A stretch of 64,000 bases of DNA from assembly GCA_050949565.1 (NCBI GenBank), contig JBMNFY010000007.1:32001-96000 (forward strand), written 5' to 3'. The number at the start of each line of letters is the position of its first letter. Position 1 is the first letter of the stretch. Below are positions 1,727 through 63,800 of this stretch, piece by piece. The notes below the pieces were generated by a model. It ran no database searches and was not told the DNA's origin. It saw only the letters and a list, made by a program, of their open reading frames with translations. Origin of the DNA: Kiritimatiellia bacterium (lineage in GTDB: Bacteria > Verrucomicrobiota > Kiritimatiellia > RFP12 > UBA1067). Made by a program: the position numbers and the translations under genes.

Positions 1727-4406
1727 ATGAAAATGAAGATGATTCACGCGAAGGCTTCGATGGTGGTTACTGTGAAGGCGAGAGGAGTCCTGCTCGGCGT
1801 GGCGGCGGGCGTGCTCGGTGCGCTCGCCGTGCGGGGAGATATCGACGATCCGCTGGCCTATTGGAGTTTTGATGACGCGGAGAACCTGCTTGTCAACCAG
1901 GTGACGCCCAGTCCGCATCACAATGCGTCTGTGCTTTTAGGGACGCCGGTCGCTGGAGTCGCCGACGGCGCGTCTGGCATCGTCGGCAACGCGCTATTGC
2001 TGGATGGAACCGCTGCTATCCGGTTGCCGTATCACCAAGATAACCTGGGAACCTCGTTCACGCTTTCGCTGTGGTACTGGCAGCAGACGAACGACACGCG
2101 CCAGAGTGTCTATCAGACGCGCGACAACTACACGGCCACCTACGAGGCCGAGATCGGTGCTCATAGCCGCTTTGCGAGTTATGCTGGACAGGACTACGTC
2201 GGTGCCATCACCACCGAATTGCGGGAGTGGGTGCATTTGACCCATACGTTTGCCACGGTCGGACGGCACGACCACGCTCTCCGTGTACACCAACGGTGTC
2301 TTTGTGTTCAGCCACAGTGTCGGCAGCGGTGCCGTGTTCGGCGGGAGTGAGATCAGGGGGATTAGAGGGTTCCACATTGGTGCCGCACGCGGCGATTTGG
2401 TGTTTGGCGGTTGGGGCTGGCGCTGTTTCAAGGGGATGATCGACGATCTGGCGCTGTGGGGACGTGCGCTCTCCGCCGCCGAGGTCGAGGCGGTCTACCA
2501 GCGCGGTGTCAGCGGGGCGAAGCTTGCCTTCACGCCGGCGCCGGCGCCGGTGATCTCACTGGGCGGGAAGGATCTTTCCTTCACGCTGAACACAGACAGC
2601 GGACTGCCCGCTGGCATGTTTAACAACGGCTGGCTGATACACAACGTGCAGGACCCCGCTTATCCCTACGTGGCGGCTGACACAGCCAGGCCCGTGCTCG
2701 ACTACGTGCCCGACACGGCGGGACACGCGGAGGGGCCATTCAACGCCGAGGTCGCCGATGTGAAATGGAGGGTGCCACTGACCGATACGATGCGGCAACT
2801 TTCGCAAGGCGATTTCACGCTGGAGACGTGGTTCCGCACGACAGATGGCGGCCGGGGTACGGTGATGGGCAATTTCTATGGTCAAACCCTCGGTGTCGTC
2901 AATCTTGAGTTTTTTTACGACAACCAAGTCCGGCTCTATCTGGGCATTCCTAATTACGGAGACATAGATTTTAAGGCGACGGCCACCAACGTGAACACCC
3001 GTAACGGTCAGTGGCACCATTTGGCTGGCATCCGGCACGGCGACACGCTGTATCTGTAAGTGAACGGAGTAGAAGTGGGGACACGAACCATAGCACCGAG
3101 TTCCTACGCTCTTCTAGGCGATTACCTGTATCTGGGACGTGATAGCCGAACCGCTGTCGCCTTTAAAGGCGAAATGGGGGAAAGCCGCGTCTGGATGCGT
3201 GCGTTGAGTACCAACGAGTTGGCGGAGATCGTCGCCTTCGGCGTGCCGGGCAGCGATGCGCTTTCAAAGGATGATCTGCTCGCCGAGTACGATCTGCACG
3301 CGCCCTTTAATGCCAGCAAACCCTGGACAGGTTGGCCGGGCTATCGGATCCTGCTTGGGGCACCGAAGCTCGGAAGGGTTCCGATGACTAATTTCACCTG
3401 CGAAGCTGTTTTCCGCACGACGTCGACAGGTGCGGGGGCTCTAATGGGGAACTGGTCCAACCATGTGTACAACACGGTGAATCTGCAGCTTGAAGGTCCG
3501 AACGTTGTACGGTTTTATCTACGGAATACGGATGCCGCGACCTGGCTGAGTGTCACGCCTACGGATATCAATACGCGCGACGGCCAGTGGCACCGGCTGG
3601 CTGGCGTCCGGGGCAACAACACGATGGCACTGTACCTCGATGGACAACTGATGGGCAGTCAGGCCGAGACGCTGGGGGCGTATCCGTTGCAAGGGCCGTA
3701 CTACTATCTGGGGCGCGACGGTCGCGCCGATGCTGGCTTTTTGTTCAGGGGCGATATCGCTGCCGCGCGGATCTGGACGCGCGCGCTGAGTGCCGACGAG
3801 CTGGCCGGACTGGCGGCTTCCAACGCGGTGCCGGCCGACGGGCTGCTCGTCCAGTACACGCCCATGCTGACCAACTCGCTGACCACGGCGGGCTTCCCGG
3901 GCAGCCGCTTCCTGCGCTCGTTCGTGACCCTGACGAACAGTGCCGCGCTGGTTTTTACCGATCTGCCGCAACATGACAAAATCGGTCTGGGCATGATGCT
4001 GGCGCAGCTCGGTCAGATGAAGCCGACGGCGAAAGGCGACCGCTTCATGATCCGGGTCGACGGGACGGAGGTGCTCAGTGTCGGTCTCGGCCCCAACCAA
4101 GGCGCAGAGCCGCAGATCAGCACGTTGAGTTTGTTCGGCGAGGCGACGAATGTCGAGGTGTTCACGAGTACCCTGACGTGCGGCGATGACCTCTTCTTCT
4201 GCGGCACGGCCTGGAGTGACTATCGTGACCATGTGTACGATCTCGCGTTGCTGGAGCCGCTGCAGAACATTCCGCATTCGGCCGACACCTTGCTGGTTGA
4301 GATTATCGGCGTTCAGGATGCCATTCCCGAAGAAGCGAGTTTCGGGTTCGACCGGTTCGAGTTGACCGTTTACCCGCGCCGTGGCACGATACTTTTCTTG
4401 CAGTAA
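1727..4406 (+). pseudogene. Multi-LamG (concanavalin-like) exported protein interrupted by a +1 frameshift and an in-frame stop
   Basis: ORFs 1727..2350, 2250..3059 and 3060..4406 join into repeated LamG motifs (WHHLAG...LYLDG, W-RALS-E); extra G near 2261; TAA 3057-3059 in TLYL*VNG; ends PRRGTILFLQ. Confidence 0.8.
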
Positions 4407-5874: not shown

Positions 5875-7302
5875 ATGAAGAGACGAGAGTTCATCAAAAC
5901 GACAGCAGCGGGGATTGGCGGGTTGTTGTCAGTCATGGGGGCGCGTGGTCAGGACACGGCGGCGGCGCCTGACAAACCGTTACGCGTGGCATTGATCGGC
6001 TGCGGTGACCGTGGCTGTCACGCGATCCTGCCGAATGTTATGACATCGGGCATGGCAGAAATGGTGGCGTTCATCGATCCGGATGGAAACGCGATCACTC
6101 GCGCACGGGAGCGCCTGAAGAAGTACCGGCCTGAAGCGAATGTGGAATCGATCGCCGCGTTCGCCGACTACCGTGATTTTTACAAGCAGATGGCAGGCGG
6201 CGTTGATGCGGTTTTTATCGCGACGCCCAACCATCAGCATTGCCTGCCCGCACTCCTCGCTTTTCGCAACGGCATTCATGCCTACGTTGAAAAGCCGATG
6301 GCCAATACGATTGAGGAGGGGCGCCGGATGCTGGCCGAGGCGCGTGCCAACCGCGTGGTCACGCAAATGGGGCAGCACGGCCACTCCAACGAAGGTGCGC
6401 GCCGACTCTGCGAATATGTCTGGGCGGGAGTCATCGGTCAAGTCACCGAGGTGTATTGCTGGTGTGACCGACTCAACGCGCGCGAGCAGCCGCTCGCACA
6501 GGATTCGGAGTGTCCGAAAAACTTGGACTGGGACAAGTGGATCGGCCCGGCAGCATGGCGCGGCTATAACCGCGGACTTCATCCTGTCGGCTGGTATTCG
6601 TGGCGCAGGTTTGGTAGCGCGACCATCGGCAACATGGGCAACCACGTCATTGATCCCGTCTTCTGGGCGTTGAAACTCGGCAGCCCGGAGAGTGTCCAAC
6701 TCGTGGATTTCCGCCCGGGCGCAGAAGAGTCATGGGGCCTTCGCGACCATATCGTCTGGAAGTTCCCGCAGCGTGGTGACCTTGCGCCTGTCGAGATGCA
6801 TTGGTTTGACGGACTCAAAGGCGACCTGCACTGGGACGACAGCACATGGACGAAGGGCACCTACAAGTACATCGTCAAGAAAGAACACCAGAACCTGCCG
6901 CCGAAACTGTTGGAGATCGAGAAGAAGCACGGTGTCGATCTTGGCCGTTGCGCGTCGATTCTGGTTGGCGAGAAAGGCATTCTCTGCATCAGCGTGTTTG
7001 GCGAGAGTCTGCGGTTTGTGCCGGACAGTCTCCGGTCCACGATTCCGCCGCCGCCCAAGACGCTCCCGCGCATCCGCGGTTCGCATCAGGTGGATTTCAT
7101 GCGCGCGTGCTTGGGCGGTCCGGCGGCCTGTGCGAACTTTGACTACTCACAGCCGCTCAATGAAATCGTGCTGCTCGGTGTTGCCGCTATTGAGGAAGGC
7201 TCCGGCAGAAGGTTGGATTGGGACGGCAAGGCCGGGCGCTTCAAGGATGACGCAGCGAACAAGATTTTGAGTGTGCCGAGTCGCGCAGGATGGGAAGCGT
7301 GA
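5875..7302 (+). CDS. Gfo/Idh/MocA oxidoreductase with Tat signal
   Basis: Start reassigned to MKRREF; ALIGCGDRG, ATPNHQH, YVEKP, LDWDKWIGPA. Confidence 0.92.
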   Translation: MKRREFIKTTAAGIGGLLSVMGARGQDTAAAPDKPLRVALIGCGDRGCHAILPNVMTSGMAEMVAFIDPDGNAITRARERLKKYRPEANVESIAAFADYRDFYKQMAGGVDAVFIATPNHQHCLPALLAFRNGIHAYVEKPMANTIEEGRRMLAEARANRVVTQMGQHGHSNEGARRLCEYVWAGVIGQVTEVYCWCDRLNAREQPLAQDSECPKNLDWDKWIGPAAWRGYNRGLHPVGWYSWRRFGSATIGNMGNHVIDPVFWALKLGSPESVQLVDFRPGAEESWGLRDHIVWKFPQRGDLAPVEMHWFDGLKGDLHWDDSTWTKGTYKYIVKKEHQNLPPKLLEIEKKHGVDLGRCASILVGEKGILCISVFGESLRFVPDSLRSTIPPPPKTLPRIRGSHQVDFMRACLGGPAACANFDYSQPLNEIVLLGVAAIEEGSGRRLDWDGKAGRFKDDAANKILSVPSRAGWEA

Positions 7303-7379: not shown

Positions 7380-8795
7380 ATGAAAAGACGTGATTTCATC
7401 AAAACGACAGCGGCCGGGATTGGCGGGCTGTCAGTCATGGGGGCGCGCGGTCAGGGAGCAACCGGTGCCAAAAAACCGTTGCGTATCGCTTTGATCGGCT
7501 GCGGCGATCGCGGTGGCAGGCAGTTGATCGTCGAGTGTTGTAAGGAGCAGGTCGTGGCGTTGGCCGATCCCGATCCCGCGCGTATCGCGTTCACATTGCA
7601 GCAGGTGCGCAAAACCCTGCCCTCCGCCGACACCGGCGCGATCAAAACGTTTTCCGATTACCGGAAACTTTTCGATGTGATGGGTAAAGATTTGGATGCG
7701 GTGTTCATCGCCACGCCCAACCACCAGCACGCGATACCTGCGTTGATGGCGATCCGCCGTGGACTCCACGTGTATGTTGAAAAGCCCCTGACGCACACGA
7801 TCCAAGAAGCGCGCTTGCTGCGGGAAGAGGCCAAGCGTCATGGCGTGGTAACCCAATTGGGGAATCACGGTCATTCGAACGAGGGATGCCGGCGTCTCTG
7901 CGAGTATATTTGGGCCGGTGCGATCGGTCAGGTGCGCGAGGTGTATTGCTGGACCAGTCGTTGTAACGGTCTGCCCGACGGCAATCACTCTCCGGCTCTT
8001 CCCCTGCCGCAGGGCTTTGATTGGGACTCATGGATCGGACCAGCGCCTTTCCGTGATTTCCATAACGATCTGCATCCGCACAATTGGCACCTCTGGCGCG
8101 ATTTCGGTAACGCCGCGATCGGTAACATGGGCTGCCATATCATCGATCCCGCATTCTGGGCACTCAAGCTGCAAGCGCCGGAAGCGGTAGAACTCGAGGA
8201 TGTGCGTGGCGGGGACAGTAAGGTCTGGCCGATCACGACCCGCCTCCGCTGGGACTTTCCGGCCCGCGGCGAGATGGCACCGGTCAAGGTCTACTGGTAC
8301 GATGGTCTGGCGCATGAGTTGGAATACGGTGAGCAGACGGTGGCGCGGCGCTGGCGCAACGTCAACAAGCGCGAATGGCAATACTTGCCGCCGCTGGTCC
8401 TCGAACTGGAGAAGAAGTACGACCGGAATTTCGGCAGGAACGGATCGTTGCTCATTGGCGACAAGGGAATCATGACGATCGGTGAATTCGGCGACGCTTG
8501 CCGCATGGTGCCCGAGGAGGCTCACCGAGCTTTCCCGATTCCCGACAAGATCCTGCCGCGCGTTAAAGGCACACATCAGGACGACTTCTTCCGCGCGTGC
8601 CGCGGCGGTGCGCCGGCCTGCTCGAACTTCGAGTACTCCGCGCCGTTGGCTGAAATCGCCTTGCTCGGCAATATCGCGATGATTGCGGGGCGTGGCCGTC
8701 GCGTCGAGTGGGACGCCGCCGCGATGCGTTGCACGAACATGCCGGAGTTGAACGCGTATGTGAAGACGACTTATCGAGAGGGGTGGTCCCTCTGA
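7380..8795 (+). CDS. Gfo/Idh/MocA oxidoreductase with Tat signal (paralog of 5875..7302)
   Basis: MKRRDF; ALIGCGDRG, ATPNHQH, YVEKP, FDWDSWIGPA. Confidence 0.92.
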   Translation: MKRRDFIKTTAAGIGGLSVMGARGQGATGAKKPLRIALIGCGDRGGRQLIVECCKEQVVALADPDPARIAFTLQQVRKTLPSADTGAIKTFSDYRKLFDVMGKDLDAVFIATPNHQHAIPALMAIRRGLHVYVEKPLTHTIQEARLLREEAKRHGVVTQLGNHGHSNEGCRRLCEYIWAGAIGQVREVYCWTSRCNGLPDGNHSPALPLPQGFDWDSWIGPAPFRDFHNDLHPHNWHLWRDFGNAAIGNMGCHIIDPAFWALKLQAPEAVELEDVRGGDSKVWPITTRLRWDFPARGEMAPVKVYWYDGLAHELEYGEQTVARRWRNVNKREWQYLPPLVLELEKKYDRNFGRNGSLLIGDKGIMTIGEFGDACRMVPEEAHRAFPIPDKILPRVKGTHQDDFFRACRGGAPACSNFEYSAPLAEIALLGNIAMIAGRGRRVEWDAAAMRCTNMPELNAYVKTTYREGWSL

Positions 8796-40341: not shown

Positions 40342-40572
40342 ATGGCTACGAAGATCGAAGCTCTGGAAACAAAAGTACTGGAACTGGGAATCGAGGATAG
40401 GGCTCGTTTGGCCGAGAAACTCATACTCAGCCTAGACGCGCCAGAGGAAGAGGAGAACCTGCGCCTGTGGGTTGCAGAAGCCGAGCAGCGGCTACATCAA
40501 CTTCGGGCTGGCAAAGCCACAGAGATACCTGCGCGCGATGTGTTTCGCCGCGCGAGGGCTGCGCTTACATGA
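40342..40572 (+). CDS. Addiction-module antitoxin component
   Basis: 76 aa; LGIEDRARLAEKLILSL...W--EAEQR; overlaps the ParE-like gene. Confidence 0.85.
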   Translation: MATKIEALETKVLELGIEDRARLAEKLILSLDAPEEEENLRLWVAEAEQRLHQLRAGKATEIPARDVFRRARAALT

Positions 40573-40865
40573 AGCGTGTGACCTTCCACGAGGATGCAGA
40601 CGCCGAACTGATCGAGGCGGCTCGCTACTACGAGGCAAGAACGCCGAGCCTGGGGCTGGCACTCTTGCTTGATATTGAGGATGCTGTCGAGCAGATTCAG
40701 GCCAACCCAGAGGCGTTCCCGTTGGTCGGTACGGAAGTGCGACACAAGTTGCTGCGGCGGTTCCCGTACAGCGTCATGTATGCTATTGAACCCGACCGTA
40801 TACGTGTCGTGGCTGTCGCTCACCAGCGACGGCGACCTAGTTACTGGCTTCACCGTTTGACCTGA
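40569..40865 (+). CDS. RelE/ParE family toxin
   Basis: FHEDADAEL, LRRFPYSVMY, VAVAHQRRRPSYW; ATGA overlap with antitoxin. Confidence 0.88.
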   Translation: MKRVTFHEDADAELIEAARYYEARTPSLGLALLLDIEDAVEQIQANPEAFPLVGTEVRHKLLRRFPYSVMYAIEPDRIRVVAVAHQRRRPSYWLHRLT

Positions 40866-40953: not shown

Positions 40954-42162
40954 ATGCAGCTGATTTCAAACAACAAAACTCTTGTTAAGACGCTTGTTCG
41001 ATTGATCAATAGTTATACGGATATCTCATTTGCTGTCGCTTGGGCAACCGCAAATCACAAAATCTTCTCTCTGCTAAAGGAGAATTCTTCGAAGATTTCA
41101 CGAGCGGTAATTGGGATCCACTTTTACCAGACCCATCCAGAGGTTCTAAAATCTTTCAAAGAATCAGAAAACGTGCGATTCATCTTTCAAACAGAAGGCG
41201 TATTCCACCCGAAGATCTACCTGTTCAAGTCGAAACATAAATGGGAGGCCATAATTGGTAGCGCAAATTTGACAGCAGGAGCGCTTGGCCGTAATGCAGA
41301 GGCCGTAATATTGATCGGGGGAATGTTAGATGCAGCGAGCGGAATGCCAATTGAGCTAGACAAGCTGATCGAAAGCTACTGGAACGAAGCGAGATCGGCT
41401 AATTCCCATGATGTCGTCGCGTACCAAGCGGTTTGGACAGAACGGCAGCCCGTTATCAAAAGGCTGTCAGGAAAATACGGGGCGGGCAAGGCATCGAAGA
41501 CGGTAATTGAGTCATCTGTAATGACAATGGCGTGGCCGCAGTACTACCAAGCCGTTACCAGAGACAAGCATCACGGCTTTGAGGGTAGATGTGAATTGCT
41601 AAAGGTCGTATCGGCAGCATTCTTAGATTATGACTCGTTTATGGAAATGACGTTGCCGTTGCGAAAGACTATAGCCGGCCTTCCAAACGATAAGGAGAGC
41701 CATTGGGGCTGGTTCGGAAGTATGCGGGGGGCTGGGCACTACCATCAAGCAGTTAACGAAAATAACGCGCACCTTTCAGCTGCGCTTGATGAAATCCCCC
41801 TTCGCGGCATAATCACAAAACGGGAATATGACTCCTACATAAAGAAGTTCATTCTCGCCTTTCCAAACGGACGGCATGGCGTTGGAATTGCGAGCCGTTT
41901 GCTTGCGATGAAAAGACCGGATCAATTTGTTTGTCTCAGTTCAAAAAACAAAAGAGGTCTGTGTAAGGATTTCGGAATAACGCAGTCGAAAATTGACTAC
42001 GACTTCTATTGGGAGGAATTTATTGAGCGGATACGAGACGCCCCTTGGTGGAAATCCGATGAGCCAGAGGAAAAATCTGAAAGAGGGGTGTGGCTTGGAA
42101 GAGCGGCAATGCTTGATGCAATATTCTACGAGGGAAAAGAAATCAAACCCGACGAACCATGA
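40954..42162 (+). CDS. PLD-fold (NgoFVII-like) nuclease-domain protein with unknown C-terminal domain
   Basis: AVAW, FHPKIYLF, IGSANLT...NAEA; AT-richer than host. Confidence 0.8.
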   Translation: MQLISNNKTLVKTLVRLINSYTDISFAVAWATANHKIFSLLKENSSKISRAVIGIHFYQTHPEVLKSFKESENVRFIFQTEGVFHPKIYLFKSKHKWEAIIGSANLTAGALGRNAEAVILIGGMLDAASGMPIELDKLIESYWNEARSANSHDVVAYQAVWTERQPVIKRLSGKYGAGKASKTVIESSVMTMAWPQYYQAVTRDKHHGFEGRCELLKVVSAAFLDYDSFMEMTLPLRKTIAGLPNDKESHWGWFGSMRGAGHYHQAVNENNAHLSAALDEIPLRGIITKREYDSYIKKFILAFPNGRHGVGIASRLLAMKRPDQFVCLSSKNKRGLCKDFGITQSKIDYDFYWEEFIERIRDAPWWKSDEPEEKSERGVWLGRAAMLDAIFYEGKEIKPDEP

Positions 42163-44263: not shown

Positions 44264-44341
44264 TCACACGAAGGCACCAAGGACACAAAGGTTTTCCCAT
44301 AACACCCTACACCCCTTAGTGCCTTTGTGCCCTTCGTGTGA
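44264..44341. repeat. Empty periodic-arm hairpin (cacgaagg family)
   Basis: tcacacgaaggcaccaaggacacaaagg ... gtgcctttgtgcccttcgtgtga. Confidence 0.85.
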
Positions 44342-46243: not shown

Positions 46244-47227
46244 ATGCCCGGAAAACCTTTCCAGTCAAAACTGAACCCGCACGAGGATGAGATTTTTGTT
46301 CTGCTGGATGCGGGTTGGAGCTTTCGCCGGGTCGCCGAACAGCTTAACCGCACCCACGGCCTCGGGGTGACGCACAACGCGGTGTTCTCTTTTGTGAAGT
46401 GCCGTCGCAAACGGCGCGGTCCCCGTTTCTTTTTCGAGGGGCTCTCTCCCGATATCCGCGACCACATGCTGAAGCAGATTGCCGCTGTCTGGACGCACGA
46501 CTCTACCGCTATCGAGGGGAACACGTTAACGCTGGGCGACACGGCTAAGATTCTGGAGTTGGGGTTGACCATCAGCGGGAAAAGTCTGCGCGAGCATCAG
46601 GAGGTTTACGGACACGCCCGTGCGATTGATCTGATTTACCGGATGTTACGTCAGCCGGGTATCACCGAAAAGGATCTGTTCGCCTTGCACTGCGCCGTGA
46701 TGCAACTCTCGGCGATAGACGCCCTGAATCCGGTGGGGGCGTGGAAGCAGTCATACAACGGCACTACCGGCGTGGTGAACGGTCAGGTCGTTTTCATGGA
46801 GTACGCCGATCCCTTGGATGTGCCGTACCTGATGAAGCGATGGCTTGAAACATTCAATGCGTCGCTGGATGAAGCGCAACAACCGGAAGAGGCCGTCGGT
46901 GCTTATGTCCGGACACATCTGGGCTTCGTGCGGATCCATCCGTTTTTCGATGGTAACGGACGCGTGGCGCGGCTGGTCGCGAATCTGCCTGTGCTACGTG
47001 CCGGTTATCCGCCCGTCACCGTTCCGCTGGAGCGTCGCGGCGATTACATCGACATCCTGTGGGAGCACGAGAACGCGGTCGGCAAGATCCAGCGTGACGA
47101 TCCGCTTGTGCCGCCGTATCCAGCCATCGAGCGATTTACGGCGTTATTGCAGGCCGAATGGCAGCGGACACTGAAGCCCCTAGAAGAGGCTCGCCGCCGG
47201 GAAGCCGAGAGAAAAAGTAATAGGTAG
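46244..47227 (+). CDS. Class II Fic (AMPylase) protein with N-terminal HTH-like region
   Basis: HPFFDGNGRVAR catalytic motif; STAIEGN inhibitory motif. Confidence 0.92.
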   Translation: MPGKPFQSKLNPHEDEIFVLLDAGWSFRRVAEQLNRTHGLGVTHNAVFSFVKCRRKRRGPRFFFEGLSPDIRDHMLKQIAAVWTHDSTAIEGNTLTLGDTAKILELGLTISGKSLREHQEVYGHARAIDLIYRMLRQPGITEKDLFALHCAVMQLSAIDALNPVGAWKQSYNGTTGVVNGQVVFMEYADPLDVPYLMKRWLETFNASLDEAQQPEEAVGAYVRTHLGFVRIHPFFDGNGRVARLVANLPVLRAGYPPVTVPLERRGDYIDILWEHENAVGKIQRDDPLVPPYPAIERFTALLQAEWQRTLKPLEEARRREAERKSNR

Positions 47228-49786: not shown

Positions 49787-50401
49787 ATGAAAGTGGTCGC
49801 GTTCAATGGAAGTCCGAACCCAGAAGGAAACACGGCTATCCTGCTCATGAAAGTGCTGTCGCGCGTCGCGCGCGCGGGGATCAACACCGAGTTGGTGCAG
49901 GTCGGCGGCAATAAGATTCAAGGATGCATGGCGTGTTACCAGTGCTTCAAGGCCAAGGACAAGTGCTGTGCGATCACCGATGACATCGTCAATGATTGCA
50001 TCGCCAAAATGATCGAGGCGGATGCCATCGTCATGGGTACGCCCACCTATTTCGCGAACATGACGGCTGAGATGAAGGCGTTGATCGACCGTGCGGGATT
50101 GGTGGCGGTCGCCAACGAACAGCTTTTCGCACGCAAAATCGGTGCGGCGGTGGCGGTCAATCGGCGCGGCGGGGCGGTGCATGCGGTTGACGCTATCAAC
50201 CACATGTTTCTGATGACGCGCATGATCGTGCCAGGCTCGATCTATTGGAATTTCGGCGTGGGGATGCGGCCCGGCGATGTGGAGAACGACACCGAGGCGG
50301 TCGAGAACATGCACGATCTGGGTGAAACCATCGTTTGGCTGGTGAAGAGCCTGTGCCGCGGCGATGGACAGGCGGCGGACGCACAAGGGGGGCTCGTATG
50401 A
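49787..50401 (+). CDS. Iron-sulfur flavoprotein (flavodoxin/NADPH-dependent FMN reductase family)
   Basis: NGSP--GNT, CMACYQC...C, GTPTYF, RRGG. Confidence 0.9.
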   Translation: MKVVAFNGSPNPEGNTAILLMKVLSRVARAGINTELVQVGGNKIQGCMACYQCFKAKDKCCAITDDIVNDCIAKMIEADAIVMGTPTYFANMTAEMKALIDRAGLVAVANEQLFARKIGAAVAVNRRGGAVHAVDAINHMFLMTRMIVPGSIYWNFGVGMRPGDVENDTEAVENMHDLGETIVWLVKSLCRGDGQAADAQGGLV

Positions 50402-51165
50402 ATCGCAGATGTACATGGCTGATGGTCGCGGCGCTTGCCGTTTGTGTGTTGGCGCGCGGCGGCGAAGTCGCCTGTCCGGGTGCATATCCGGGGCATTTGC
50501 AAGGGATTGCCCGCGATGACGATGGCAATCTCTACTGGTCGTTCACGACGTTTCTGATCAAGACCGATGCGTCAGGCACCGAGCGCGCGAAGGTGGCGGT
50601 GCCGAACCACTACGGCGATCTGACGTGGCACGACGGCAAAGTTTACGTGGCGGTCAATTACGGTGCGTTCAACAAAGAGCCGGGTAAGGCGAAGTCGTGG
50701 GTCTGCGTGCATGATGCCAACTCGCTCGCGCTGCTCTCCTCGAATGCCGTGCCAGAGGTGGTACACGGCGCGGGCGGCATGGAGTGGCACGATGGCCGCT
50801 TCTTCATTGTCGGCGGACTGCCGGAAACGCATACCGCCAACTACGTCTACGAGTACTCCGAATCGTTTGAGTTCCGGAAGCGTCACGTCATTGAGAGCGG
50901 CTGGACCCATTTGGGCATCCAGACAGTCTGCCGCGCCAACGACGGCACATGGTGGTTCGGCTGCTACGGCAAACCGGCCGTCACGTTGCGCACCGACGAC
51001 TCGTTCCGCTTCCTCGGCAAGCACGCCTTCAACTGCTCGGTGGGTGTTGCGCGTGCGCCGGACAGCGGCGAGTTACTGGTCGCGAAAAACTTCCGCTCCA
51101 AAGAGGACAAGCGCAACACGGCGACTGTGGCGCCAGTCCCGATCAAGACGATCCTCGCGAAATAA
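50398..51165 (+). CDS. Exported hypothetical protein (possible beta-propeller)
   Basis: Signal peptide; GHLQGI, HYGDL, HGAGG, LGIQT motifs. Confidence 0.7.
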   Translation: MNRRCTWLMVAALAVCVLARGGEVACPGAYPGHLQGIARDDDGNLYWSFTTFLIKTDASGTERAKVAVPNHYGDLTWHDGKVYVAVNYGAFNKEPGKAKSWVCVHDANSLALLSSNAVPEVVHGAGGMEWHDGRFFIVGGLPETHTANYVYEYSESFEFRKRHVIESGWTHLGIQTVCRANDGTWWFGCYGKPAVTLRTDDSFRFLGKHAFNCSVGVARAPDSGELLVAKNFRSKEDKRNTATVAPVPIKTILAK

Positions 51166-51628
51166 ATAATCGGTTGTTTTTAACGCAGAGGCGCAGAGAC
51201 GCAGAGTTTTTCTACGGTGTAGCGGCGGTGCCGCGCCCCGCGCACTCCAGATTGCCGCGGGACAACGTACCTGTTACCCTAAAAAGAGCAGTTGAAGTAT
51301 CAACTGCTCTTTGGTTTCTGACATGGCTCGGTTTTTCTATCCACAGATGACAGATGACGCAGATTTTTTGGGGGCATGACTCGGGTTTTTCTCACACGAA
51401 GGCACGAAGGTCACGAAGGTTTTGGATGGCGGGTGTCCTCGCCCGCAAAAAGTTGAGGGTGCGTCTAAATATCTGTCCCTTTGTCGCCAAATTCTATCAT
51501 TCTTTGCCTTTCCACTATTCTATTCCCACCAATTAAATTGGGCTGCGGACTCTGCCGCATTAGCACTTGTTGCGACTACACAGTGGATTGCAACGCGAAC
51601 TCCCTACTACAAAGCGCCCCCTGTCAAT

Positions 51629-52087
51629 CTACTCTGCTTCACCTGAATCACTATTCTGAATGCGTTGAATCAAATCAGTAAATGAAGACGCTATCGGCAT
51701 GATCGCACAACTGGGATCGGCTTCTTCATGGAACCACAGTACAATGTCTGGGCTAGTTTTCCCTGCGCCGTAGCGGAAACAAACATAATTTCCCGTTCCG
51801 TCATCAGCAATTGGGAGTAATCCAGCGGGCAGGCGATCACGATAAATATCAAGCAAGAGCAAGACGTTTTCTTTTGTATCGTTTTCCGAAAAACTGATGA
51901 ACGAGTTGATATCAAAAATGCTTCCATCTGGAAGAAGAAGTTCCGAAGGGTTCGGAATCGCCCCGTTGTACCGCCGTAGCCATGCTTTGAAATCTTCGGG
52001 CAGAGACCGCTCTAAAATAGACTCGATGCGAGAAATATCTTGCTCGGTTACCGGCGTTTGCATCAACATCCACTCAAGCTGTTTCAT
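51629..52087 (-). CDS. SMI1/KNR4 (SUKH) immunity protein
   Basis: IESILERSLPEDFKAWL-RYNG, LLPIADDGTGNYVC, WFHE, IASSFTDLI. Confidence 0.92.
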   Translation of the reverse strand: MKQLEWMLMQTPVTEQDISRIESILERSLPEDFKAWLRRYNGAIPNPSELLLPDGSIFDINSFISFSENDTKENVLLLLDIYRDRLPAGLLPIADDGTGNYVCFRYGAGKTSPDIVLWFHEEADPSCAIMPIASSFTDLIQRIQNSDSGEAE

Positions 52088-53097
52088 GATTGAATTCCTT
52101 CCGTCGAATCGGTTTTTTTGAGGAGATCGCTTAAAGCTTGGTCATTAGCTGTCCGCACTGAGTCTAACTGTTGCCAGCGTGCTTTCGATTCAGCTTCCCG
52201 GCAGATTTGCTCTTGGATTTGCAACTGTTGCAAGCGATAACTCTCCCAACAGTAATCTACGAGAGCGCGCGTAGCCGCATAAGACAAGGTCGCCCCCCAG
52301 GTAGCCGGGCTTCCATAAAGAATCCGAATGCCATGAAACCAGCCGGGCGGCGGGGCTGCGGCCTGAGGAAGTAGTTTCGCTATGAGATATTCTGTGCTGA
52401 ATGCAGCTGTACCGCCCGCAACTGCTCGGGTTGTCGCCTGCGCAAAATGGTCAACATCCAATTCGCCATCGGCTAGCAACCCCGCCGAACTGGCGGCAAT
52501 GTCAAAGACCGCAACAGAACCCCATCGTAAAGCAGTCAAACGTAAGGCGCGTTTACTGTCGAATTGACCCCACGTCTTCGCGCCGCCTACATGATCAGTA
52601 GAATGTTCGTTTTTATCCACGAGTTGCATTCGGCCCCCTTTCCCATCGTGGTGCCATGCTTTTCCCCGCGGGGTTTTGCGTTGCTTTAGTATTAGTAGTT
52701 GAATGTCTTCCTCGGTAAGTTTAAGTTTCTTTATCAAATCTGGATTCTTCTTGCATGCTTCTAGGAGCTTCTCACTGCAGTGTTTTGCGTAGGAAGAACT
52801 GCGATATTGGGAAGGCTCTAGTTGAACATCAAACTGTGATTTGAACTTTGGAAATCCCCGCCAATCATAGTGAACTCCAGTGCGAGCATCAACTGTGTTT
52901 GCAAGCTTATGTAATTTTTGATAGTTCGCATTACTCAAGAAGTCGCTACGCAACAAAAAGGAACGTCCGTATGGCGCAAGGGTACCCGAAGACGACAATG
53001 CGTCTGATGCCGTAGAAGGGTCTGATGCATCCGCATAAGTAATTGAAAATGAGGTGCAAAGCACCACCAGAGCAAGTAAAACCTTAGAAGTCATCAA
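52084..53097 (-). CDS. Signal-peptide-bearing WHH (HNH/EndoVII) nuclease toxin
   Basis: N-terminal signal peptide; GVHYDWRGFPKF, TPRGKAWHH--GGRMQLV--EH--HVGG--WG; ATGA overlap with the SMI1 gene. Confidence 0.88.
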   Translation of the reverse strand: MMTSKVLLALVVLCTSFSITYADASDPSTASDALSSSGTLAPYGRSFLLRSDFLSNANYQKLHKLANTVDARTGVHYDWRGFPKFKSQFDVQLEPSQYRSSSYAKHCSEKLLEACKKNPDLIKKLKLTEEDIQLLILKQRKTPRGKAWHHDGKGGRMQLVDKNEHSTDHVGGAKTWGQFDSKRALRLTALRWGSVAVFDIAASSAGLLADGELDVDHFAQATTRAVAGGTAAFSTEYLIAKLLPQAAAPPPGWFHGIRILYGSPATWGATLSYAATRALVDYCWESYRLQQLQIQEQICREAESKARWQQLDSVRTANDQALSDLLKKTDSTEGIQS

Positions 53098-54094
53098 GGG
53101 TTTTCCTTTTTTCTAAATTGCGTATTGCTTGATATCGCACCCGCTCTTTAGATTTGAGGGCATCGATACTGTCATAAAGCTCATAAAGCCTTTTTGTTAT
53201 TTCCCTTGAGAGCGAAGGTTCGGCAACAAGCGACACGTTTACCTCGCTCAGCCGCCTGTAAAGCTCCATTGCTTTGGCTTCATCCAACTTACGCGACACA
53301 TTCATTGGATCAGTTTCTCTATAAAGACCTTCGGCCCAGAGTGTATACTTGAGGCGCTGCCTTTCCCTCAGTACGGAAGCGGCATGACCTAGGTGAGCCA
53401 TTGCGGCCTCCCATTTCTCGCGAGCAGTTCCGGTTGCATCAGGAGAAAGAGACATCAGAATCTGACGTGCGGATTCGCACTCCTGAAGGCAGGTGCTTAA
53501 AAGTCCGTTTGCTTTGGCGTTTTCAATAATTGAGAGATTTTCTTTTTTTGCCTTTTCTACAGCCGAATTGATAATTACGATGGCCTTTTCAATTGAGTCC
53601 AGTGTTGTTGAAGCAGCGACAGTCGAAGACTCCTGATGATTTGAATCCGCCCTGTTTGCGTCATTGTCATCAGACAAGTTTGATTCCGTCTCAATTGTTT
53701 TAACGAGTTCTAAAGCCCATCTTTGGTCTTCAGCAGATAGCCACCCGAAGGGGATAGCCTGAATAATCGACAGCGCGTCAAGCTGAATGGCTTCACGCAT
53801 GAACGGGCTCACATCTTTATCAGGTACAGAGGCGATGCGTTTACGCGCAAGCTCAATCATCTGCTGGGCATGCTTTCGCTTTTCCACTTCATACTTCGCA
53901 TCAGTAATGAGGGCCTGGATGACTTGCTTGTCAACATCCTTGTTAGGATTCGCCAACAAGGCTTCCAGACGTACAATTCTGTCCTGCGGCGAGAGCGTGT
54001 GGTTGTTCCGAATTTCGGATAATGTGTCCGCCCTTGCAGAAAAAACCGTCAGCAGCCCCCCGAATGATAAAATTGAAAGGATTATGGTTCTCAT
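53084..54094 (-). CDS. Exported alpha-helical hypothetical protein
   Basis: Signal peptide ending ARA; charged helical sequence; overlaps both neighbours. Confidence 0.8.
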   Translation of the reverse strand: MRTIILSILSFGGLLTVFSARADTLSEIRNNHTLSPQDRIVRLEALLANPNKDVDKQVIQALITDAKYEVEKRKHAQQMIELARKRIASVPDKDVSPFMREAIQLDALSIIQAIPFGWLSAEDQRWALELVKTIETESNLSDDNDANRADSNHQESSTVAASTTLDSIEKAIVIINSAVEKAKKENLSIIENAKANGLLSTCLQECESARQILMSLSPDATGTAREKWEAAMAHLGHAASVLRERQRLKYTLWAEGLYRETDPMNVSRKLDEAKAMELYRRLSEVNVSLVAEPSLSREITKRLYELYDSIDALKSKERVRYQAIRNLEKRKTLDDF

Positions 54095-55197
54095 TTCAAA
54101 GGCCCGAATGTTTCAAAAGCAACGAAACTTTTGTCTGCGACATCATCGGCCGATGCCTTACCGATGAATGCCCAGCTCTTGCCATCAATCTTGCCAATTT
54201 TTGACGAGAAAACTAAGGCGTCTCGACGAACGCGGTTTTTCTTGTAAATAAGCACTTCCGTACCATCGCCTGTATTCTTGAGAACGGTAATGATCGGAAT
54301 TTTAACGTTGATGTCTGTTGTAAGCGCAAAAGGAGCCTCCTTCCGAAATGGATACTCATTGGCACCTTGTTTGAGCACGACATAATACTTCGCACTGTCA
54401 ACCTTCTTCCCGCCTTTCAAAGCCGCTGCCTGACTCAGGTGGATGCTTCGAATCCGCACAATATACCTCTCGCCAAGCGCTAAATTTCCCTGCTCAACCG
54501 GGGTCTTCGCTTCGCGAAGTCGAAACGCTACGGACGCTGTATGTTTTTCTCCTAGATTAGTCTCGTCGTAATCAAGCCTGCCGTTAAGCGGGAACTCTTC
54601 ACTTTCCGGACATTTCATCTCAAATACAATCCGATCATTGGCTGACAACGCTCCGGTCGCGGTACCCGCAGCAATTCCTGTGCAACCTCCAATGACCGCA
54701 CCGATGAGTGCCCCAGCAGGAGCACCCAGCCCTCCAGTAAAGACTCCGGCAGCTATGCCACCGATGAGAGCTCCTACGCCTATTAATCCCACGACACCAA
54801 TTCTGCCAGCCGTTGCCGATGCCTCAACTTCTTCAGAGATCTCAACTTTTTTATCGGAAAAAAACACATTGATGCTGATCGTGTTCCCTTTTTCCCACAG
54901 CAATGCGGGCATCGCGTCATGCGTTGCCGGCCATTCAAAAACAGTCTGATTTCTGCGTACCTTTTTCTTCGGTGATGTCCACACAGGCACCCCATCGCTT
55001 TTGATGACAAGATAAACGTACGTGCTAGACAGTATAGCTAGGTGTTTTTTGGAAGCCTTTTCCTGAAAATAACGCGGCATCGTTATTGATTGCAGTTGCG
55101 TTGCGTACAGTTTTGCACCTTCGGCTTGCTCCGCCGCATAAGCGCCTAGAGACACCACGAGGCTAAGAATGATGGTCGTCAGCAGGGTTCTGGACAT
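54091..55197 (-). CDS. Exported protein with glycine-zipper hydrophobic hairpin
   Basis: AGAGGAG RBS; signal peptide ending AYA; GLIGVGALIGGIAAGVFTGGLGAPAGALIGAVIGGCTG. Confidence 0.82.
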   Translation of the reverse strand: MSRTLLTTIILSLVVSLGAYAAEQAEGAKLYATQLQSITMPRYFQEKASKKHLAILSSTYVYLVIKSDGVPVWTSPKKKVRRNQTVFEWPATHDAMPALLWEKGNTISINVFFSDKKVEISEEVEASATAGRIGVVGLIGVGALIGGIAAGVFTGGLGAPAGALIGAVIGGCTGIAAGTATGALSANDRIVFEMKCPESEEFPLNGRLDYDETNLGEKHTASVAFRLREAKTPVEQGNLALGERYIVRIRSIHLSQAAALKGGKKVDSAKYYVVLKQGANEYPFRKEAPFALTTDINVKIPIITVLKNTGDGTEVLIYKKNRVRRDALVFSSKIGKIDGKSWAFIGKASADDVADKSFVAFETFGPLK

Positions 55198-55296
55198 GTC
55201 TTTCTCCTCTATCGCTTGTTAAACGGTGTGTTGGGTTCAATTTCGCGCACACGCGACATCAACCCAAAATTTTCCTCAAAACTCCTAACTTCTGGA

Positions 55297-55326
55297 ATAG
55301 TATTGTTTTCATTGAGGGCTTGTCAA
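55297..55326 (-). promoter_or_regulatory. Sigma70-type promoter of the toxin operon
   Basis: TTGACA-N18-TACTAT on the minus strand. Confidence 0.65.
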
Positions 55327-55487
55327 ACGCTGTTTTCAATCGTGGCGCGATCATGATCGATTAGTAACAGGGGCATGCGAGTCGAGTGCGCGTTTTGTTG
55401 CGCAGTCGGGGGCAATGCCCTCAAAAAAACCTTTGTGCCCTTTGTGCCTTTGTGTGAGATTGGCACGCCTCGCGAAATAGGCGCGCG

Positions 55488-56297
55488 TTACGCGTCTTCG
55501 AGGGCGACCGGGTTGGTGAGTTCACCGATGCCGTCGATAGCGACGGTCACGGTGTCGCCCGCCGCGAGATAAAGCGGCGGTATGCGCGAGAAGCCAGCCC
55601 CGGCAGGGGTGCCGGTGAAGATCGCCGTGCCGGCCGGCAACGTGGTGCTGCCGCTCAGGAAGACGATCAGGTCGACCACGCTGAAGATGTGGTCCGCCGT
55701 GTTGGAGCATTGGCGCAGGTCGCCGTTGACCCAAGCCTTCAGGGCGAGGTTCTGTGGATCGGGAATCTCGTCGCGGGTGACGATCACGGGGCCGAGCGGC
55801 GCGAAGGTATCGAAGGATTTGCCGCGGCACCACTGATTACCGCCAAAGCTCTTTTGCCAGTCGCGCGCCGTGACGTCATTGCCGCAGGTGTAGCCCAGCA
55901 CATAATCAAGTGCATTGTCAGGCGTGGCATTCTTACACGGCTTGCCGAGAATCACGACCAACTCGGCCTCATAGTCCACTTGGGTGCTGGGCAGATGCGT
56001 GGGGATGAGGATCGGATCGCCGGGGTGCTGCACGCTCCACGGGCTTTTCATGAAGAGCACCGGATGCTCCGGAATCGGCTGCCGCGTCTCGTGGGCGTGG
56101 GCGCGGAAGTTGAGGCCGATCGCCAAGATGACGGGCGGCTGGAGCGGGGCGAGCAGCTTGGCGACGCGCTCGCGGCGTCCGCTGGGCTGCCAAGATCCGA
56201 AGAGGTCGCCGATGATCGGCTCGGCCGAGCCGTCGGGATGGAGGATGCCGGTCTGCGGTTCGGCGCAGGTGTCTGTCAGGAAGCGAATGATTTTCAT
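55488..56297 (-). CDS. Fumarylacetoacetate hydrolase family protein
   Basis: IGLNF, PVLFMK, VDYEAEL, GNDVTARD, GKSFDTFAPLGP, FTGTP. Confidence 0.92.
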   Translation of the reverse strand: MKIIRFLTDTCAEPQTGILHPDGSAEPIIGDLFGSWQPSGRRERVAKLLAPLQPPVILAIGLNFRAHAHETRQPIPEHPVLFMKSPWSVQHPGDPILIPTHLPSTQVDYEAELVVILGKPCKNATPDNALDYVLGYTCGNDVTARDWQKSFGGNQWCRGKSFDTFAPLGPVIVTRDEIPDPQNLALKAWVNGDLRQCSNTADHIFSVVDLIVFLSGSTTLPAGTAIFTGTPAGAGFSRIPPLYLAAGDTVTVAIDGIGELTNPVALEDA

Positions 56298-57424
56298 GCG
56301 GGTATCGTAGCAGGTTTTTCTAGAATCGTGTCAAGCAGGGACGAGACGTCATCCGCCGTGACGGGGCGGGGATTGGCGGCGGTCGAACCCGAGGCGAGCG
56401 TCTCGCGGATGAAGGCCTCGCGGTCGGCCACCTGTTGGCCGGCAAAGGGATTTTTCAGTTCCATCGCCGTCATCCAAGCGGCGATCTGCGCTTCCACGTC
56501 CAGCCCGTGCTGTGATTTAAGCGTGTTGAGATCGCGAGCCACGGCTTTCCGGTTGAAGGCAAGACAGGCTGGCAGGCAGCAAGCGCAGACCAGCCCGTGC
56601 GCGACGTTGAAGCGCACGCCCAGCGGGTGAGCGAGACCGTGGATGATGCCCAGGCGCGCGTGCGACAGCGCGACGCCCGCCAGATAACTCGCCTCCAGCA
56701 TCTCGCCTGCCAGATCGCTGTTGCCTTGATAGAACGGCAGCAACGCGCGTGCAATGCGTGTCAAGGCCAGTTCCGAGAGCGCCCGCGTGAAGGGCGTGGC
56801 GTGCAGGCTGGTGTAGGACTCAAAGGCCTGCACGAAGGCGTCGAATCCCGCCGCCGCGCGCGTGTTCGACGGACAGCACCGGAGCAGGCAGGGGTCGAGG
56901 ATCACCAGACGCGGCATGTAGGAGGGATGGCGGATCGATTGTTTCACGGTTCGCGACGGGTCGGTCAGCACCGACACCACCGTAGCTTCCGCGCCGGTAC
57001 CGGCGGTGGTGGGCGCCGCGATCAGTGGCAGTGCCGCCGGGGGAATCGACGCCGGATGCATCTGGTAAAACGCGGTGTTTTCCGGCGCGTCCAGCAGTCC
57101 CGCCGCCGCCTTGGCCAGATCGATCACACTGCCGCCGCCGACTGCCGCCACCCAATCGGGACGGTCGGCTTTCAGATCGGCGCGCAGTGCATCGACCGCG
57201 TCGACGGTCGGTTCGTTACCGGCATGGCGCCAAGCGCGAACTCGCATGCCGAACGGTGGCTCGTTTAAGATCGCGTCCAGTAGCTCGGAGCGTTGCAACG
57301 AACAACCGTGAACCAATACACCGCTCGAACCGAACTCAGCGGCAAGGTTGGTGAGGCGCAACACCGCGCCTTCAGCGGCGACGGTCCGTTGCGGCAGGAG
57401 CAGGGATGCGGGCAAAAGATTCAT
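56294..57424 (-). CDS. Iron-containing alcohol dehydrogenase
   Basis: GGGSVIDLAK, PTTAGTG-EAT, LDP, LGIIHGLAH, HG. Confidence 0.9.
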   Translation of the reverse strand: MNLLPASLLLPQRTVAAEGAVLRLTNLAAEFGSSGVLVHGCSLQRSELLDAILNEPPFGMRVRAWRHAGNEPTVDAVDALRADLKADRPDWVAAVGGGSVIDLAKAAAGLLDAPENTAFYQMHPASIPPAALPLIAAPTTAGTGAEATVVSVLTDPSRTVKQSIRHPSYMPRLVILDPCLLRCCPSNTRAAAGFDAFVQAFESYTSLHATPFTRALSELALTRIARALLPFYQGNSDLAGEMLEASYLAGVALSHARLGIIHGLAHPLGVRFNVAHGLVCACCLPACLAFNRKAVARDLNTLKSQHGLDVEAQIAAWMTAMELKNPFAGQQVADREAFIRETLASGSTAANPRPVTADDVSSLLDTILEKPATIPA

Positions 57425-63339: not shown

Positions 63340-63800
63340 GAGTTGTTTTTTAACGCAGAGACGCAGAGGTTTTGATGGATGCGGCGTGACCGCCGCTGGG
63401 AGGGGCAAGCGTCTGCTTGCCCGCGGACGAGCAGACGCTCGTCCCTCCCGGTGCTCCGCAATGAACCCTGAAACCATCCTTCCGCACAGCGGAAGGCGGC
63501 TCGTGGGGACACTCGCCATCCATTGCCCGTCCCTGCGGCTCGTGGGGACACTCGCCATCCAAATCATGTCAATCATGTCAATCATGTCAAAAAAATGAAA
63601 CCATGGAACACGGGCAAGATGCCCGTGCCACACCCTTTTGCAAGACACGTTGTTGCGGGCGAGGACGCCCGACTCCAAATCTCTGCTCCCCTTTTCACCA
63701 GAAACGCACGATCTTCGCACATCCCTGTCATTAACCGACTGTGGATGGTCATGGAAAAACCTTTGTGTCCTTTGTGCCTTTGTGTGAGATTGAATTGGGT
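63340..63800. repeat. Intergenic repeat mosaic
   Basis: cgcagaga arm, three REP families, (aatcatgtc)x3, 28-bp site, cctttgtg arm; blocks shared with 11474-11841, 16753-16990 and 45881-46170. Confidence 0.88.

Follow-up and report, generated by a model that had tools for sequence, protein, structure and literature searches.

How can an exported nuclease that is encoded beside an immunity-type gene, with no recognizable carrier nearby, reach the DNA of another cell? This question is raised by a four-gene cassette in a 64,000-nucleotide stretch of the genome of a Kiritimatiellia bacterium (GenBank assembly GCA_050949565.1, contig JBMNFY010000007.1, positions 32,001 to 96,000 of the forward strand; the window in the following, whose numbering is used throughout unless another locus is named). 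The cassette consists of four overlapping genes, as already described in a first-pass annotation made from the letters of the DNA only; they lie on the minus strand (51629-55197), are denoted g1 to g4 in the direction of reading and overlap by 4, 14 and 4 nucleotides (nt). Our reading, to which we would give an even chance, is that the cassette constitutes a self-contained, horizontally mobile, Sec-exported multi-component nuclease toxin with g1 and g2 as obligate, co-evolved partners. The identity of the nuclease and of its SUKH neighbor, the export signals, the strict linkage of the genes and the sporadic, island-like distribution, all judged from sequence, point to a conflict element; beyond that we infer that g3 is toxic and is neutralized by g4, that the proteins form a complex and act on membranes, and which target they have.

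The presumed toxic component is g3. Its residues 77-170 match Colicin-DNase (PF12639; E-value 3.5e-15, 57 bits, cut-off 25) and residues 140-178 match WHH (PF14414; 30.9 bits, cut-off 25.1), which bears out the WHH nuclease proposed in the first-pass annotation, except for its placement in the middle of the protein, as the nuclease occupies the N-terminal half, residues ~45-180. PF12639 is found in all 16 homologues of g3 and PF14414 in 10 of them. Residues H149, H150, H165, H169, G171 and G172 are invariant in an alignment of 18 long-form g3 sequences (alignment A2), and the HH pair, H168 and the GG pair are invariant in a mixed set of seven long- and short-form sequences (A5; the short form is described below). 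Among PDB sequences, the DNase of colicin E7 is matched weakly (E-value 0.06). Judged by these motifs and family matches, g3 belongs to the Tox-WHH/Colicin-DNase group of HNH-type (His-Me finger) nucleases.

Behind the nuclease follows a C-terminal domain of ~150 residues, whose conservation in both alignments at least equals that of the nuclease domain. It is composed of moderately hydrophobic, small-residue-rich helices and a subsequent Gln/Glu-rich helix. The "hydrophobic segments" annotated earlier are indeed present, yet only to a moderate degree: the Kyte-Doolittle maximum is 1.22 (1.28-1.44 in relatives), below the level of classical membrane helices, and they are therefore not called transmembrane helices. 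No Pfam or NCBIfam family covers this domain. Two leads from the ESM Atlas ("colicin-like pore-forming" and "glycine zipper", both 0.86) fell below the bar of 0.9 and were not used.

The product of g4 was annotated as SMI1/KNR4, and this assignment holds (SMI1_KNR4, PF09346; E-value 6.7e-24, 85.3 bits, cut-off 25.4). It displays no N-terminal hydrophobic stretch in a hydropathy script and is classed as cytoplasmic. A SUKH gene lies directly behind g3 in 6/6 long-form loci; by family match and by its place after the nuclease gene, g4 qualifies as a SUKH/SMI1_KNR4 immunity-type protein.

Whether g1 and g2 belong to the toxin can be judged from their relatives. Searches of 5.8 billion clustered proteins yield 21 relatives of g1, 26 of g2 (the one of the window included) and 16 of g3, the latter all full length with 333-354 amino acids (aa). 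Equal longest-contig sizes recur across these lists, 10 times between g1 and g2, 12 times between g2 and g3 and 5 times between g1 and g3, an indirect sign of co-location. A profile search for g1 in 1.84 billion representatives returns 182 matches at E-values up to 1e-3, 46 up to 1e-10 and 27 up to 1e-30, most of the weaker ones covering the glycine zipper only. The search for g1 and g2 homologues beside toxin genes, suggested along with the first-pass annotation, gave a clear answer: the order g1-g2-g3-g4 is kept in all six long-form loci with enough sequence (L004-L009), and g1-g2-g3 in 3/3 short-form loci. Identities of g1/g2/g3/g4 to the window amount to 53/49/53/48% in a Hydrogenedentota metagenome-assembled genome (MAG; L004), 51/47/50/52% in a Bacteroidota-labelled MAG (L005), whose cassette is near-identical to that of another Bacteroidota-labelled MAG (L006), 60/66/57/61% in a metagenome contig (L007) and 39/30/29/31% in a low-GC organism (L008), to which a further locus from a low-GC organism (L009) is near-identical. 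The identities of the four genes thus move in step (29-66%), which indicates that they diverged together as one unit. In a further locus (L012), g1 is complete and the contig breaks off after the start of g2.

A short form of the cassette, g1-g2-g3 without a SUKH gene, is present in three genomes: G277 (locus L024), G037 (L026) and G382 (L027). The g1-like gene comes first; its product of 205-259 aa has the zipper and a signal peptide but a single sandwich. The second protein (195-198 aa) carries the conserved C-terminal module of g2, and the g3 homologue (323-330 aa) agrees with the long form in its nuclease motif and in its C-terminal domain. A fourth genome, G073 (L025), shows the first two short-form genes and then the contig end. 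The g3-g2-g1 nucleotide blocks of L026 and L027 are 92.6% identical, the identity ending exactly at the end of g3. The next gene in both loci (L026, 3601-4116, minus strand; L027, 3222-3728, minus strand) encodes a ~170-aa lipoprotein-like product, the two being only 26% identical to each other; this may be an exchanged periplasmic immunity protein or an unrelated neighbor. In L024, transposase genes follow g3. On the sequences compared, the constant core of the cassette is g1-g2-g3 and the fourth gene is variable.

WHH-SMI1 pairs had been framed in the first-pass annotation as polymorphic toxin/immunity modules, and this framing does not fit. The nuclease family is constant in 9/9 related loci with enough sequence (L004-L009, L024, L026, L027), a small sample, and all relatives accompanied by g1 and g2 have the same nuclease and the same C-terminal domain (A2, A5), so that the toxin does not vary as had been considered. 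Further, the toxin domain is not C-terminal: of the 337 residues it takes up 77-178, and the conserved 150-residue domain comes after it; no swapping of toxin domains is seen, a single g3 family being present at all nine loci. Features shared with polymorphic toxins are the N-terminal trafficking signal and the downstream immunity gene, the latter in the long form only. Since the toxin is always the same WHH nuclease with the same C-terminal domain, g1 and g2 look like dedicated partners of one toxin family, and the cassette appears to be a dedicated co-inherited unit and not a carrier for swappable toxins.

For g1, which possesses a signal peptide of ~21 residues, no family scores above cut-off in Pfam or NCBIfam. 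The AlphaFold2 model calculated from an alignment of 21 homologues (A1) displays two β-sandwiches (mean predicted local distance difference test score, pLDDT, 74.2; predicted template modelling score 0.69), the first formed by residues ~29-114 and 188-231 and the second by residues ~240-368. Structural superposition with VIA-align relates both of them to C2 domains, as had been guessed for the β-rich regions. Residues 240-368 match the C2 domain 9bkw_A (Z 10.6, root-mean-square deviation (rmsd) 3.0, 114 aligned residues) and the C2B domain of an extended synaptotagmin (E-Syt), 7a1r_B (Z 10.5, rmsd 2.5, 110 residues), while residues 20-232 match the C2 domains 6kxt_A and 7bi4_A (Z 8.4-9.2), and the two sandwiches together can be overlaid on the C2A-C2B tandem of E-Syt2, 4npj_A (Z 9.1, 249 residues, rmsd 7.5). 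Foldseek lists 81 matches of the model at E-values up to 1e-3, with C2 proteins on top. The best fold matches are all eukaryotic C2 domains, from extended synaptotagmin, copine BON1, ferlins and cPLA2, at sequence identities of 4-18%. According to these alignments of the predicted model, g1 has a tandem C2 fold, an assignment at the level of the fold only. Near the C-terminus a DDxxD stretch is conserved in A1.

The first sandwich of g1 is interrupted by a glycine zipper of ~65 residues. The long glycine-zipper hairpin of the first-pass annotation thus stands as a candidate, except that it is inserted into the first sandwich and not placed between two domains. Its Kyte-Doolittle maximum over 19 residues is 2.3, and its length and hydrophobicity would be enough for a two-helix membrane hairpin; the model is unreliable in this segment (pLDDT below 50 for residues 119-183). 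Distant g1-like modules are also found in larger proteins. A 938-aa protein in L010 (1-2505) and L011 (4536-7352) ends in one that is 33% identical, and the tandem-sandwich and zipper module is C-terminal in the proteins P0071, P0083, P0085, P0087 and P0090 as well, the proteins measuring 690-940 aa. Neither g2 nor g3 is found in the visible 2.8 kb downstream or 4.5 kb upstream of the module in L010/L011. The N-terminal parts of the fused proteins match no Pfam family, and a g2-like nature of these parts was rejected for P0071 and P0083 (hhalign probability up to 0.2%).

The second partner, g2, is, as first described, a helical protein predicted to be exported, with a signal-peptide-like N-terminus and an all-helical AlphaFold2 model (pLDDT 85.6). 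Its most conserved part is the last ~100 residues in an alignment of 25 sequences (A3). No family is found above cut-off in Pfam or NCBIfam, Foldseek returns nothing at E-values up to 0.001, the ESM Atlas nothing usable, and VIA-align only generic three-helix-bundle matches (Z up to 11), which is under the level advised for helical proteins. The weak top rows of Foldseek (E-values 0.04-0.2) include the MUN domain of Munc13 and Exo70, and g1 resembles synaptotagmin and Munc13-type C2 domains; the resemblance of g2 is probably due to chance among helical proteins, though curious in such a pair.

With respect to delivery, a hydrophobic stretch and, behind it, a motif of small residues make up the N-termini of g1, g2, g3 and nearly all of their homologues, the only exceptions being records truncated at this end; export of the three proteins, as first annotated, is predicted on this basis. 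The first-pass annotation had seen no carrier, and this is confirmed within the range covered: Pfam finds no RHS, CDI, LXG or PAAR carrier within ~13 kb on either side (20 open reading frames (ORFs) between 36 kb and 64 kb, encoding metabolic proteins as well as a ParE toxin, a PLD-type nuclease and a Fic protein), and no gene for the sheath protein TssC of type VI secretion systems (T6SS) was found in the 92%-complete genome. The genome encodes BamA and five secretin genes above cut-off, and the host is diderm. Complex prediction for g1, g2 and g3, with g3 as partner, gives 0.63 as compared to 0.57 with g1 replaced, a difference that counts neither way on binding.

The cassette is rare and its occurrence is scattered. 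Full-length g1 is found in 1/401 sampled genomes of the host phylum, namely in the host itself, and together with four short forms in 5/401; it is absent from 17 genomes of the host family and occurs in 1/135 Hydrogenedentota, in 1/301 genomes of the order of G402 and, when 185,579 species genomes were scanned by pattern, at three loci. Relatives were found neither on phage contigs nor on plasmids. Flanking genes differ at every locus, with no secretion or mobility gene in common. The GC content of the cassette lies below that of its surroundings, with ~0.47 against ~0.61 in the window, 0.48 against 0.59 in L007, 0.47 against 0.66 and 0.53 on the two sides in L024, and 0.43 against 0.52 and 0.48 in L026.

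An island of 4.3 kb with a perfect 12-nt direct repeat at its ends carries the cassette in the window (Table 1), and its boundaries are supported by an empty site. When public contigs were aligned to 50300-56400, a 1639-nt contig of run X19 was found to cover 50328-51131, to continue with 21 diverged letters corresponding to the last codons of the left-hand gene and then to cover 55468-56258; the same joint is present in the DNA run X14. The two parts of this contig show 34 and 12 letter differences to the window, so that it stems from a close relative; as it joins the flanks, this relative lacks the island and has the repeat in a single copy. In runs X13 and X14 the cassette itself is present with no letter changed. 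Metagenome runs with this DNA come from digester, bioreactor, wastewater and soil samples. Comparable brackets exist elsewhere: in L007 a perfect 21-nt direct repeat encloses the cassette and an extra 151-aa ORF before g1 (3855-3875 and 8083-8103), and in L027 a 38-nt direct repeat, 89% identical, encloses the cassette and the downstream lipoprotein gene (3108-3145 and 6267-6304). None of the three bracketed islands contains a recombinase. An integron cassette, a transposon and an integrase island were considered and rejected, with neither a recombinase nor an attC-like site nor island-specific terminal inverted repeats being found. Low GC content, rarity and the empty site agree with an accessory, conflict-type distribution, and the differing flanks with a self-contained unit.

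From these elements a mode of action can be proposed. In this proposal g3 would be a Sec-exported HNH-type nuclease toxin and g4 its cytoplasmic SUKH antidote, which would shield the producer when nuclease has folded prior to export or comes back in from sister cells. The proteins g1, g2 and g3 would leave the cytoplasm via Sec and cross the outer membrane by type II secretion, in vesicles or by leakage. Thereafter g1 would attach to a membrane via its two C2-type lipid-binding sandwiches, its long glycine-zipper hairpin would permeabilize the membrane or insert into it, g2 would bridge or chaperone the conserved C-terminal domain of g3, and the nuclease would get to the DNA of the competitor cell without a contact-dependent injection machine. 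A precedent for the zipper is the DNase effector Tde1 of the Agrobacterium T6SS, which requires its glycine zipper to cross the cytoplasmic membrane of the target cell (Ali et al. 2023, PMC10240207). By analogy a similar role of g1 is plausible, as is a translocator role of g1 and g2. It is a tentative extension, possible but rather doubtful, that the cassette represents a third route of nuclease delivery beside single-chain colicins and contact-dependent injection, namely a freely secreted three-protein machine on a recombinase-free island of 3-4 kb that hops between phyla; in such a machine the synaptotagmin-like tandem-C2 protein g1 would dock, its zipper would open the membrane, and the helical adaptor g2 would hold the C-terminal domain of g3 while the nuclease is passed through.

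Several observations weigh against the cassette being a secreted multi-component toxin. The mutual binding of g1, g2 and g3 and their action on membranes are inferred, and the predictions made here do not back them. The zipper could equally anchor g1 in the inner membrane of the producer itself, and no route is evident by which three proteins would pass the producer's outer membrane. Pfam C2 families do not match g1 at E-values up to 1, leaving the fold as the sole basis of the C2 assignment, and the g1-like module in the 938-aa protein, with no toxin nearby, indicates that the module is not exclusive to toxin systems. No SUKH gene is detected in the short-form loci by tblastn at E-values up to 0.01, which is odd for a nuclease that endangers its producer, and the gene 3′ of g3 differs between L026 and L027 despite their 92.6%-identical block. 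Finally, the toxin/immunity pair shows neither polymorphism nor orphan immunity genes, unlike classical competition toxins.

Alternatively, the cassette would still encode a toxin, but g1 and g2 would be a release module on the producer's side, which would permeabilize or remodel this cell's envelope so that g3 gets out, similar to the lysis proteins of colicins, with entry being left to the C-terminal domain of g3; we regard this as unlikely, though worth retaining. After Sec export, g1, g2 and g3 meet the periplasm and the membranes of the producer first, and in a diderm host a release step is needed. Colicin operons pair toxin, immunity and release genes, and the conserved, moderately hydrophobic C-terminal domain of g3 could handle entry. 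On the other hand, g1 and g2 lack a lipobox and do not resemble the small lysis lipoproteins of colicins, two large conserved proteins of 336-368 aa seem excessive for mere release, and C2 sandwiches are membrane-targeting modules and not lytic ones.

Quite improbable, in our view, is that the proteins are no offensive toxin but a nuclease complex residing in the envelope, in which g1 would be anchored by its zipper, g1 and g2 would hold g3 on the periplasmic side of the inner membrane, and the enzyme would cut incoming or environmental DNA in defense, uptake control or scavenging, g4 guarding the cytoplasm from mislocalized enzyme. Nuclease-inhibitor pairs such as NucA-Nin of Bacillus subtilis offer a parallel. 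The zipper is hydrophobic enough for a two-helix anchor, and the lack of an evident outer-membrane route as well as the constancy of the toxin agree with such a complex; a short form without an immunity gene is also easier to understand if the enzyme never re-enters cells. However, PADLOC assigns no defense family to g1, g2 or g3 at E-values up to 0.01 (for g4 a short match to PDC-M40A, a candidate model, over residues 9-44 at an E-value of 5e-6 is all that is obtained), and a conflict element accounts better for the extreme rarity and the island-like mobility than a physiological role does. That the target is a eukaryotic grazer, with the C2 sandwiches of g1 recognizing eukaryote-type acidic phospholipids and the nuclease killing a predatory protist, is very improbable, as the eukaryotic origin of the best fold matches says nothing on lipid specificity at such low sequence identity, WHH-SUKH pairs are known from inter-bacterial conflict and no eukaryote-directed domain was found, even if the DNA occurs in digesters, bioreactors and wastewater, where grazing is common.

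The secreted nuclease toxin with dedicated partners, which we prefer, can be set beside known systems. Nuclease colicins and S-type pyocins (e.g. colicin E7 with Im7) are alike in being diffusible HNH DNase bacteriocins with a co-expressed antidote and without an injection machine. Colicins harbor receptor-binding, translocation and DNase domains on one chain, the DNase being last, have Im-type immunity and a lysis gene and are not known to carry a signal peptide; here, by contrast, the domain layout is different, the putative membrane functions reside on separate Sec-exported proteins, the immunity protein is of the SUKH type and the island contains no lysis-type gene. MafB is a Sec-dependent toxin encoded with MafA and MafI, with an accessory gene upstream and an immunity gene downstream, and combines MAFB-N (DUF1020) with variable C-terminal toxins. 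The cassette shares with it a Sec-dependent toxin between an upstream accessory and a downstream immunity gene, but MAFB-N (DUF1020) has no Pfam match here at E-values up to 1 and the toxin is fixed. CdzC and CdzD of Caulobacter are reportedly small glycine-zipper proteins, encoded together with immunity in a small operon and exported via type I secretion, which are themselves the toxin and kill neighboring cells; the nuclease and the C2 fold of the present cassette are features that Cdz is not known to have.

The closest relationship is to toxins exported by Sec and the type II secretion system (T2SS). Zhang et al. (2012) list Tox-WHH with Imm-SUKH, name Sec/T2SS among the export routes and mention the MafB toxins of Neisseria (PMC3482391). 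Such toxins agree with the cassette in nuclease family, in the immunity family directly downstream and in having the signal peptide as sole trafficking signal (PMC3482391). They differ in that here the toxin lies N-terminal to a conserved domain and is not swapped, two exported partner genes are always ahead of it and a short form lacks SUKH. The zipper of Tde1 is short and lies at the N-terminus of the toxin itself, whose delivery needs the T6SS (PMC10240207), whereas the cassette places a zipper of ~65 residues on a separate C2-fold protein in a genome where no T6SS sheath gene was found.

Hence the pairing of Tox-WHH and Imm-SUKH with Sec/T2SS export is already known (PMC3482391). No description was found of the exported partner pair (a tandem C2-fold protein with zipper and a helical protein), of the reversed architecture of the toxin, in which a dedicated domain forms the C-terminus, or of a fixed, non-polymorphic unit; a literature search for a bacterial toxin combining a C2 domain with a glycine zipper, which left most subscription journals outside, likewise found none, and this is weak evidence of being undescribed. 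The cassette adds two protein families and one toxin-associated domain to those without current annotation, would bring C2-fold membrane-binding domains into a bacterial conflict system and suggests that a WHH-SUKH pair can belong to a fixed, co-evolving unit and not only to a polymorphic one. How nuclease toxins pass the inner membrane of target cells is little understood, colicins and T6SS effectors included. As the four-gene cassette distributes putative membrane-binding, membrane-inserting, adaptor and catalytic modules over separate small proteins, each step would be separately testable. If g1 and g2 were mere release or anchoring factors, the cassette would be a modest extension of known bacteriocin biology.

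Table 1. Features of the cassette and of the island carrying it (window coordinates).
Feature	Position	Strand	Basis
g1	54091..55197	-	ORF, 368 aa
Glycine-zipper insert of g1, residues ~119-186	54640..54843	-	G/A pattern invariant over 21 homologues (A1)
g2	53084..54094	-	ORF, 336 aa
g3	52084..53097	-	ORF, 337 aa
Colicin-DNase/WHH HNH-type nuclease domain of g3, residues 77-178	52564..52869	-	Pfam and invariant motifs
C-terminal domain of g3, residues ~183-337	52087..52551	-	conservation in A2 and A5
g4	51629..52087	-	ORF, 152 aa; SMI1/KNR4 (SUKH)
Promoter-like TTGACA-N18-TACTAT, 5′ of g1	55297..55326	-	consensus scan, 10/12 positions
4.3-kb island carrying the cassette	51165..55479	.	GC ~0.40-0.55 against ~0.60-0.69 in the flanks; absent in a close relative
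Left 12-nt direct repeat CCTCGCGAAATA	51153..51164	+	last codons and stop of the neighboring 276-aa gene
Right 12-nt direct repeat, perfect copy of CCTCGCGAAATA	55468..55479	+	repeat search
Left arm, host repeat module (CACRAAGG x3)	51390..51423	+	blastn-short, 34 nt, 88% identity, inverted to right arm
Right arm, same host repeat module	55426..55459	-	blastn-short

The promoter that had been ascribed to the cassette is matched by a consensus site 5′ of g1, but it is a consensus match only, as the scan finds seven such sites in the region against 3.9 +/- 1.8 in shuffled sequences. In front of g1 lies a ribosome-binding site of the GGAG type. A possible operator is the perfect 12-nt palindrome CGATCATGATCG at 55348-55359, some 22 nt upstream of the -35-like hexamer. 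The listed start of g3 is TTG, and the ATG at the next codon agrees with the start of the relatives, the closest of which is P0022. A search of the genome revealed no second copy of g1, g2 or g3; Rfam families have no match in 50900-55700, and no tRNA was found in the window. Two short contigs from run X19, an RNA library, are identical to parts of g2 (53144-53312) and g1 (54606-54792), although such libraries may contain DNA.

Regarding the neighborhood, conflict-type genes for a ParE-family toxin, a PLD-like nuclease and a Fic-domain protein lie 5-11 kb off the cassette (40467-40862, 40954-42159 and 46244-47224). In the window (49787-50401, plus strand) as well as in the unrelated low-GC locus L008 (10100-10468, minus strand), a convergent gene for an NADPH-dependent FMN reductase lies downstream of the cassette, which may be a coincidence. 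The segment 51165-51430 contains further short tandem motifs and is covered at very high depth in metagenomes. The triple-repeat motif of the CACRAAGG type (unit of 8-9 nt) has 53 copies in the genome as compared to none for the reversed control. Elsewhere this host repeat module usually forms close inverted pairs, whereas here 4 kb separate its two arms, which lie just within the ends of the island; further copies are located at 44275-44338 and 63760-63776.

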